Of a DNA stretch of 64,000 bases, positions 17,401 to 20,400 are shown one piece after another. The DNA comes from Squalus acanthias (lineage: Eukaryota): NCBI GenBank assembly GCA_030390025.1, contig CM059441.1, positions 66,898,001-66,962,000 on the forward strand, read 5' to 3'. The notes under the pieces were generated by a model that made no database searches, was not told where the DNA came from, and saw only the letters and a program-made list of their open reading frames with translations. A program made the translations under genes and the position numbers. Each line of letters starts with the position of its first letter. The stretch's first letter is position 1.

Positions 17401-20400
17401 CTCAGGTGCACGTAAAAGATCCTATGGCACTATTTTGAAGAGGAGCAGCGGCATATTCCCCGATGTCCTGGCCAATATTTATCCCTCAAACGACATCACT
17501 AAAAACAGATTATCTGGTCATTATCAAATTGCTGATTGTGGGAGCTTGCTGTGTGCAAATTGGCTGCCATGTTTCCTACATTACAACAGTGTCTGCACGT
17601 CAAAAGTACTTCATTGGCTGTGAAGCTCTTTGGGATGCTCCGAGGTTGTGAAGGATGCTATATAACTGCAAGTCTTTTTATGATTTGATGGGGAGGACCA
17701 TTTTTTGGGAACTCTGTGAATGTTTAGAAAATTTAGAACTGCATTTTTAAGATATTGTAGGGGCTGGGTTATGGCTCCTCAATTGCTGTCCAAAGTGGAG
17801 AATAATTTTATGTGACAATCCTCATCATATGCACATTTGTTAAGTACGCTTTGGATAATTCTCTCCCGCTTTACAGTTCATTCACAGCAACAAAGATCCA
17901 AAAGGTAAAATCAAACGTTAATACATAAACACACAGTGTAAAAAAGATGCAGAGAATCCAATCTAATCACGCGGCCGCTGCTTTTGTTACTTGCAGTCGG
18001 TTGGATTATCTAACTAGTAAGGTTTTAATTCTGCTACCGAGTGCTATGGTGATCCAGAAAGTACATTTTTGAACCTTGCAGGTAGAAGCAAATGGAGAAG
18101 GAGAAGGAAGCGAGAGAGAGAGAGAGAGAGAAAGGAAGGAGGCGTTAGACCACAGTTCAATGCCATTTACCACGATGGAGCTCTAACCGTTGTCAACATG
18201 CACAGACTTTAGTACTTGCTATTCTGATGGGGATTTAAAGTAATGAAAAGCTGTAAACACACACAGATGACTCTGTCACCTCCTGGCAGAGAAGAGAAGG
18301 GGGAAGAGAATAAGTAAGATTAACGTGAAGTGAATTTGAAATTTCAAAAGGGTCCTCACCATTAATTGAACACTGGAACTTGACTTCCTTTTCTGAATAG
18401 AGACCGACACGAGAAAAAGAAAAAAAAGAACAAGAAATGGTGACTTGTTGCACATGTGGCAGATTTCCTAACACCAGGTCCAGATCAGGTACACAATCCT
18501 AAAGACTAATTCTCAGGGTCAGTGTTTTTAAAAGGACACTGTCGAGAAAATAAAATGCCTCGAAATCCTGAAAAAAGTGCAAATCATACGACTTCAAACA
18601 CAGGTATCAAGCTGCAGTATCCCTTTCTCAGAGGCTCAAAAAACTAACATCTATCCAGTGAACGCTCTGGATGCTGGCCGAGTCGGGAGGTTTTCCCAAT
18701 GTCTGCTTACTCTGGGACACCTTTTGTCCCTATGTTGGAACATGGAAGGAGATCCAGCACCTTGTTATTTATAGATCTTGCACCTCCAATCTGCTTAGTC
18801 GCTGAAGAAAGGATGTTGCAAAATGCACCAAGGCGGCCTACAGTTTGGTTTTTGATCGTCTCTCATCTCGGACTTCCCCTCTGTGCTTGTTTCAGGTCAT
18901 TTTGATTATTTATTTTTTTTAAGATGTGAAGTGTAGGAGTCCACTGGTCAAAGGGTGAGAGACGGGAGTAATTTAGCTCGTAGGGGGCGGAGAGTGGGGG
19001 GGAGAAATAAGTGGTAGGGAGGCAGAACTACTCCACTCTGCAAAGTGCCCTTGGCTTGTTGGCCAGCTTGTGAGGAAGTCTACAGTTCCAGCTCCACCGC
19101 TGTTCCTTTCTGACAGGTGAGGGCGGAAACTGAATACTGAAGACACAAGCCAGACTTGAAGTGGGGGTCCTGGTACAAAGATAACCGTAAGTAACAACAG
19201 GGATGAGAAAAGGGGAAAGGAAAGAGTAAATGTGGCCAAAAAAAAAAAGGTGGACTGAGACCAGTTTGTCAACCAAATTGCACGGCCATGTCTATTTGTT
19301 TGCTAATCTCCATCAATGGCGCTCTCTTGTTCAATGGATAACAAATCTATTTGCTGCCTGCATGTTTGAGAATGGCCTTCTGCTTCGGGTAGCCGAGGGA
19401 AAAGCTCGAGTCTTCCCAGAAGCAGTTGGGTACTATGATGGGGGACCTGCGAGCTTCCATGGAAGGATGAACTAGATAAGACTGAACGCAGCCCTTATCC
19501 GTACTGATCCTGGTGATCTCTGTGAGGAGCCGAGGCCATTACCGGATCAAACTTTCACTTTGGTGTATGACAATGTGGCCAGGAATCATGTCGTGACAGT
19601 GGCGAGTCTGCAACATCACCCTCTGGATGATTCAGGGTTAACAATAAAAGGGATGCTGCAGCTTTGTAGCATAAATTACAATTAATCAAAGAATAGATCC
19701 AAAAAAAAATTAGCTTTTTCCACCCTTTCATCAGCCCAGTGGTTTTTAAAAATCAATCTCTTATGGAAGATAACTTGTTGAAAGGTTTAGTTAAGTGCTC
19801 TTTTTTGATAACATTTCAATTTAAACAAATCCCCTGTGCAAATACGTCACAGGCAGAATACCAAATCTAAGCCAAATCTAATTGTGTCACAGGAAGAGAA
19901 ATCTTGCGTTGTGAATTTAAATTCTGAGGCGACTCCACTCAAGAGCCATTAAGAGGGCGTCTGTACTGGTGAAAGGGCTCATTCCATACTCAGGTAGAAT
20001 GCTCAAAGGAAGAGTTGTGAACATGCATACACTTTGGTATAAACTATGACATTGGTTGAGCTATTTTCAATCATGCATTTTTACGTGAGACATCACCGAT
20101 GGTCATTTTTAAACCCCTCTTTCACCACTCCCCCTCCCACCAAACTCAAAAAATGTTCCTAAATGGGACAATTCTTAACTTAATTCAGGGATTTTATTTT
20201 TATTTGACCATTTTCTTTTTTCCTCTCCTATTTCCTGTTCGACGTTTGCCACTTTCCCTCAATCTTACCCCGGTCGCCCGGGAGGGAGGCTGGCATGGGT
20301 TGGCGCCTCACAGACCCATCCGACAGTCGTGGCAGATCCTTCTCCAGAAGGAGCAGAAGACAGCAGCGAGGCCAGCTCATTTGCACTCCCGTCCTGCCTC

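Follow-up and report, generated by a model that had tools for sequence, protein, structure and literature searches.

A shark CaMKII-beta gene with the already reported NLS cassette exon, probably ancestral and probably lost toward tetrapods, and with a 66-nt partner exon

The window, which is the whole 64-kb stretch of Squalus acanthias DNA that was analysed, lies wholly within a gene that its sequence identifies as camk2b of a cartilaginous fish, with the exons on the minus strand and in the expected order (Table 1). We are confident that a 33-nt exon of this gene represents v3N, the NLS cassette exon of shark and ray camk2b, in intact form, likely an ancestral retention that was likely lost toward tetrapods, and that its inclusion completes a KKRK motif predicted to send CaMKII-beta holoenzymes to the nucleus. 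Most of the database isoforms behind this explanation are computed gene models. The NLS exon in shark CaMKII-beta is real but already published. Cook et al. 2018 (PMC5882894) described v3N-containing beta sequences from several bony fish and from sharks, naming zebrafish and whale shark, and a cloned zebrafish camk2b1-K, in which the NLS exon stands between exons II and 18, was called nuclear by its authors (PMC10766190, S4 Table). Because of these two reports the exon is not a novel finding, and the novelty that a preliminary description of this DNA had seen in an NLS exon of beta does not stand.

Table 1. Positions of the features of the camk2b gene within the window
Feature	Position	Strand	Remarks
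Kinase/regulatory exons 7-12	62329-62227, 56477-56394, 54963-54869, 52819-52697, 52231-52148, 51116-51074	-	
Exon I / v1 / exon 13, homologue of F-actin-binding exon	47344..47415	-	47415>47344
Exon II / v2 / exon 14	40321..40361	-	supplies the first K of KKRK
Extra 66-nt in-frame exon	31113..31178	-	between exon II and NLS exon; CAG acceptor, GTACAC donor
UGCAUG	31071..31076	-	37 nt downstream of 66-nt exon
NLS-exon acceptor region: polypyrimidine tract, AG-free zone of 49 nt, CAG	18393..18443	-	
NLS cassette exon (v3N / exon 15 / exon III)	18360..18392	-	33 nt, phase 0-0; 18392>18360
UGCAUG	18197..18202	-	158 nt downstream of NLS exon; sense TGCATG at 18202>18197
Linker exon v4 / exon 16	10576..10644	-	23-residue peptide
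Linker exon v5 / exon 17	7587..7631	-	15-residue peptide
Linker exon v6 / exon 18	5432..5480	-	16-residue peptide

The in-frame translation of the 33-nt exon is the 11-aa NLS peptide. In its length, its phase of 0 at both ends, its position between exons 14 and 16 and its canonical splice sites, the exon has the features of the v3N/exon 15 class. A T-rich tract, free of AG over 49 nt, leads to the CAG acceptor, and the donor reads ATG/GTGAGG. Exon II ends in ...DGVK/GTAGGT, with AAG as its last codon, and its join to the NLS exon reads KKRKSSSS, with the serines next to the basic residues kept; the 66-nt exon described below also ends in AAG. Thus, the preliminary description was right that the exon is intact, has good splice sites, stands in the expected order and yields KKRKSSSS when joined to ...DGVK. 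Its equation of the exon with the NLS exon of alphaB, gammaA and deltaB is supported, exon 15 of alpha, gamma and delta being a 33-nt cassette as well.

All 12 standard exon peptides of the window are identical to those of a sawfish beta model (P0074). Counted letter for letter, 12/13 of the window's exon peptides (277 aa) are identical in P0074, 3/13 in a ray gamma and 1/13 in a bird delta. Sites shared with one paralogue only, across the part encoded in the window, number 15 for beta, 4 for delta, 3 for gamma and 0 for alpha, and the beta-diagnostic KEAY lies in exon 8. The 41-aa peptide of exon 10 also occurs unchanged in shark, ray and chimaera CaMKII proteins, which are mostly named beta among the best 120 of 8000. 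A tree of 23 proteins, which included the shared linker, excluded the NLS columns, had the hub masked in 6 rows and used P0074 as a stand-in for the window gene, placed three shark or ray betas in a 10-row beta clade (SH-aLRT 96) and the ray gamma in a separate gamma clade (92). A kinase-plus-hub tree of 26 rows recovered beta as one clade in only 46% of bootstrap trees, and noisy model tails likely contributed to this weak grouping. In one skate, the beta and the gamma model are on separate contigs, both of them with an NLS exon. The gene therefore groups with vertebrate beta and has the beta-diagnostic residues of a CAMK2B orthologue in kinase and linker exons as well as a beta-type exon 13, and the original naming of it as CaMKII-beta is borne out by the 15 beta-only sites, the clade at SH-aLRT 96 and the 12/13 peptides identical to P0074.

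In shark and ray models of the same gene the sequence continues with proline-rich SVRRGS exons that resemble exons 19-21 of mammalian beta; none of these proline-rich exons was found in the final 5.4 kb of the window. The linker of the protein is likely disordered. Kinase exon 7 has an apparent AAG acceptor with a weak C/A-rich tract (62329-62360, minus strand). A likely alternative donor at 47317, 27 nt beyond exon I (47317-47343, minus strand), would add a basic GRRVRADT(A) piece that is present in many shark and ray models. The intron before the NLS exon contains a 34-bp tandem array (26320-27769; 42.8 copies, 94% match), and 31-bp tandem arrays lie at 23503-23914 and 30167-30269. Very high-copy interspersed repeats, abundant in the RNA-type runs, occupy 12280-15513 and 16438-17823, and a reading frame near 2469 is presumably LINE-like. 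The acceptor of exon II is a tandem CAGCAG (40358-40364, minus strand), which matches the 14a/14b choice in human beta (bioRxiv 10.1101/721589).

Among the 109 proteins with a beta-type exon II in the best 120 of 8000 scored by the exon 10 peptide, 43 shark and ray beta models have the NLS exon, with an identical 11-mer at the same position. A KRKS-coding pattern occurs at just 2 sites in the window, both strands counted, and this rarity, together with the identical 11-mer in 43/109 models, argues that the exon is not a chance occurrence. Pooled over all searches, the count was 114/195, which is inflated by an NLS-directed search, so that 43/109 is the fairer figure; the NLS peptide was unchanged in 114/114 of the shark and ray carriers, which span 16 genera by a hand count from the tables. 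Teleost beta has kept a drifted form of the exon in goldfish and catfish models, and KRKSSSTVQYM was found in 4/9 teleost-type entries. The caution in the preliminary description that teleost camk2b might retain the exon holds, as the catfish and goldfish models and zebrafish beta1-K demonstrate. The teleost exon has diverged (P0284, P0306, zebrafish beta1-K) while the shark exon matches the alpha peptide, a pattern that may reflect relaxed constraint in bony-fish beta. Two skate gamma models (P0030 and P0540) have the NLS exon as KRKSSCCVPLM, with cysteines in place of two of the four serines.

The NLS exon was found in 0/100 tetrapod beta models with exon II, frogs and sauropsids included; these came from 119 new proteins obtained with a tetrapod-type exon 10 as the query. 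Pooled with other searches the count was 0/108, including 10 frog-type and 33 sauropsid-type entries, and it describes protein models rather than intron searches. The best 120 of 1432 matches to a query with the NLS exon joined to exons II and 18 comprised shark and ray beta, two betas from teleosts, two alphas from fish and many deltas from tetrapods, and no tetrapod beta. The searches turned up no coelacanth, lungfish, salamander or caecilian beta, cluster look-ups likewise gave no gar or bichir beta, and a 50%-identity library supplied outgroups but no further NLS-bearing beta among the linkers listed. With presence in sharks, rays and teleosts and absence from 100 tetrapod models, the best reading is the one already offered in the preliminary description, namely that the ancestral beta gene probably had the NLS exon, which this gene has retained and which was lost later; the loss likely fell on the line to tetrapods. 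Since frogs and sauropsids are among the 100 models, the loss likely occurred at or before the tetrapod ancestor and would thus predate mammals. That mammalian CAMK2B is without the exon is supported by earlier work (bioRxiv 10.1101/721589; PMC5882894), in which exon 15 was present in every human CaMKII gene but beta (bioRxiv 10.1101/721589). Cook et al. had proposed that v3N was eliminated from beta later in vertebrate evolution, perhaps with F-actin specialisation (PMC5882894).

The window also contains a 66-nt exon, passed over in the preliminary description, that lies 9.1 kb past exon II and 12.7 kb ahead of the NLS exon. Its peptide is identical at 17-21 of 22 residues to that of 15 shark and ray models from five genera, and in 15/15 of these models it is directly followed by the NLS exon. 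Because the 66-nt exon ends in Lys, KKRK would be kept when it is included. Its pattern had no bony-vertebrate match among 543 stored proteins, few of which were from fish, and a literature search, whose scope was outside subscription journals and figures, found no description of it. This exon may be the sole part of the present analysis that is unpublished, and it is already contained in public gene models.

A UGCAUG, which we take to be an Rbfox-type motif, is present downstream of the NLS exon, and the distance of about 160 nt given for it previously was measured as 158 nt. The sense strand of the window has 20 copies of TGCATG, and the chance of at least one within a given 200 nt is about 0.06, which makes the motif weak evidence of regulation. 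Another UGCAUG lies close to the 66-nt exon (Table 1). It is possible that a single loss of the beta NLS exon occurred in the lobe-finned/tetrapod stem and that the 66-nt exon, as a shark- and ray-specific exon spliced only with the NLS exon, keeping KKRK and followed at 37 nt by UGCAUG, forms with it a coupled, tissue-regulated module that would give actin-binding and nuclear beta isoforms absent from tetrapods. We offer this combination tentatively and lean against it as a whole.

Of the 12 runs listed, four whose RNA label is a guess were mapped on 5350-19200, a stretch that excludes exon II and the 66-nt exon. The 462-nt bin with the NLS exon, which contains no repeat within the window, had contig depths of 17.5, 2.3, 3.5 and 6.7 in the four runs (4/4), and both flanking bins had 0-0.28; at the 90% likeness used for mapping, NLS exons of paralogues could add to this cover, and depth per contig gives no inclusion level. 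Contigs from runs X1, X2 and X3 matched intronic stretches with 0-1 differences, which indicates that these runs contain either this locus or one nearly identical to it. Among the matches listed for the four RNA-type runs, a list filled by interspersed repeats and followed by 294 further rows, there was no exon-exon joint. The cover of the bin fits cover of the exon and falls short of proof of splicing, giving weak support.

Two accounts under which this gene would make little nuclear beta, or would not be beta, have to be set against these data. The exon could be a conserved relic that is rarely or never included here, so that little nuclear beta is made, and this would agree with the lack of a joint among the matches listed, with X-numbered isoforms that are predictions and with an Rbfox motif near chance level. 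However, a relic would be difficult to reconcile with a peptide unchanged in all 114 shark and ray carriers, with strong splice signals, with cover of the NLS-exon bin in every run and with the cloned zebrafish beta1-K cDNA (PMC10766190), and we consider it very improbable. Even less probable, to the point that we give it almost no weight, is an assignment to camk2d or camk2g, genes in which such an exon is routine. In its favour, NCBI labels several isoform models of this shark protein as delta or gamma, the second half of exon 16 is delta-like, four sites match delta alone, and the core-only (kinase-plus-hub) tree did not settle beta. Against that assignment stand the beta-only sites, KEAY among them, and the well-supported beta clade, the existence of a separate ray gamma gene, and the SVRRGS proline-rich continuation shared with mammalian beta.

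The interpretation that we prefer, an included and functional NLS exon in camk2b, draws its mechanism from the paralogues. KKRK is an SV40-like import signal and a working NLS in alphaB, gammaA and deltaB, import through which is blocked by serine phosphorylation, and subunits with the NLS are able to bring mixed holoenzymes into the nucleus (PMC12642011 and PMC5882894, and for mixed holoenzymes also PMC10766190). By analogy, KKRK completed on splicing would allow import of shark beta through importin, and phosphorylation within the conserved SSSS beside it would gate that import. Tissue-dependent inclusion of the exon, in which Rbfox may have a role, would then yield nuclear-competent beta subunits. 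The papers examined contain no localisation test of a fish beta NLS isoform, and passages of PMC4801060 and PMC8327911 contain nothing on a beta NLS exon.

An addition to this explanation, compatible with it, is that a single isoform, having exon I as well as the NLS exon, shuttles from F-actin into the nucleus: its release from actin would be brought about by Ca2+/CaM, and import would become possible once the serines are dephosphorylated. Exon I is present in 35 of the 43 NLS-bearing shark and ray models, the actin role of its homologue has been described, and the actin and NLS modules have each been given a function separately in mammals (bioRxiv 10.1101/721589; PMC5882894). However, some 29 kb separates exon I from the NLS exon, exon II lies in this interval, and the models may merge exons from different molecules. 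Gamma pairs the same two exons, and gamma transcripts that include exon 13 went undetected in human hippocampus (bioRxiv 10.1101/721589), while Cook et al. suggested that actin specialisation accompanied loss of the NLS (PMC5882894). We regard such shuttling as unlikely. The presence of actin and NLS exons in one gene, proposed in the preliminary description for ancestral beta, is not special to beta, since actin exon 13 occurs in beta and gamma alike (bioRxiv 10.1101/721589), and five stored gamma models combine actin exon 13 with NLS exon 15.

The window adds one more cartilaginous fish in support of an NLS exon that likely goes back to the ancestor of all four CaMKII genes and was later lost by beta. 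What it adds is modest: the loss likely dates further back, to tetrapods and not to mammals alone, and there is the apparently undescribed 66-nt partner exon. Shark or zebrafish beta is also a natural test of whether nuclear import and actin binding conflict within a single subunit, as suggested by Cook et al. (PMC5882894), and gamma allows a similar one.

The closest known counterpart is the v3N of fish and shark beta (PMC5882894), which is the same exon in the same paralogue and animal group, with the same inference of later loss. The search for absence by Cook et al. covered mouse, rat and human only, whereas the present sample adds bird, lizard, alligator and frog models, and the sections of that paper examined make no mention of the 66-nt exon of the window gene. 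Zebrafish camk2b1-K, cloned by RT-PCR (PMC10766190), is likewise a beta gene product with exons II and 18 on either side of the NLS exon, but its NLS peptide has drifted (SSST, then I/V-Q-Y-M), whereas that of the window is identical to alpha's. Mammalian alphaB, gammaA and deltaB likewise have a 33-nt cassette after exon II, with KKRK formed across the junction and serines adjacent to it; these are other paralogues, in which import and its gating by phosphorylation have been demonstrated, whereas for shark beta they are predicted. CAMK2G resembles the window gene in combining exon 13 with exon 15, both within the gene and within individual annotated isoforms, and differs from it in that the paralogue is gamma, not beta.
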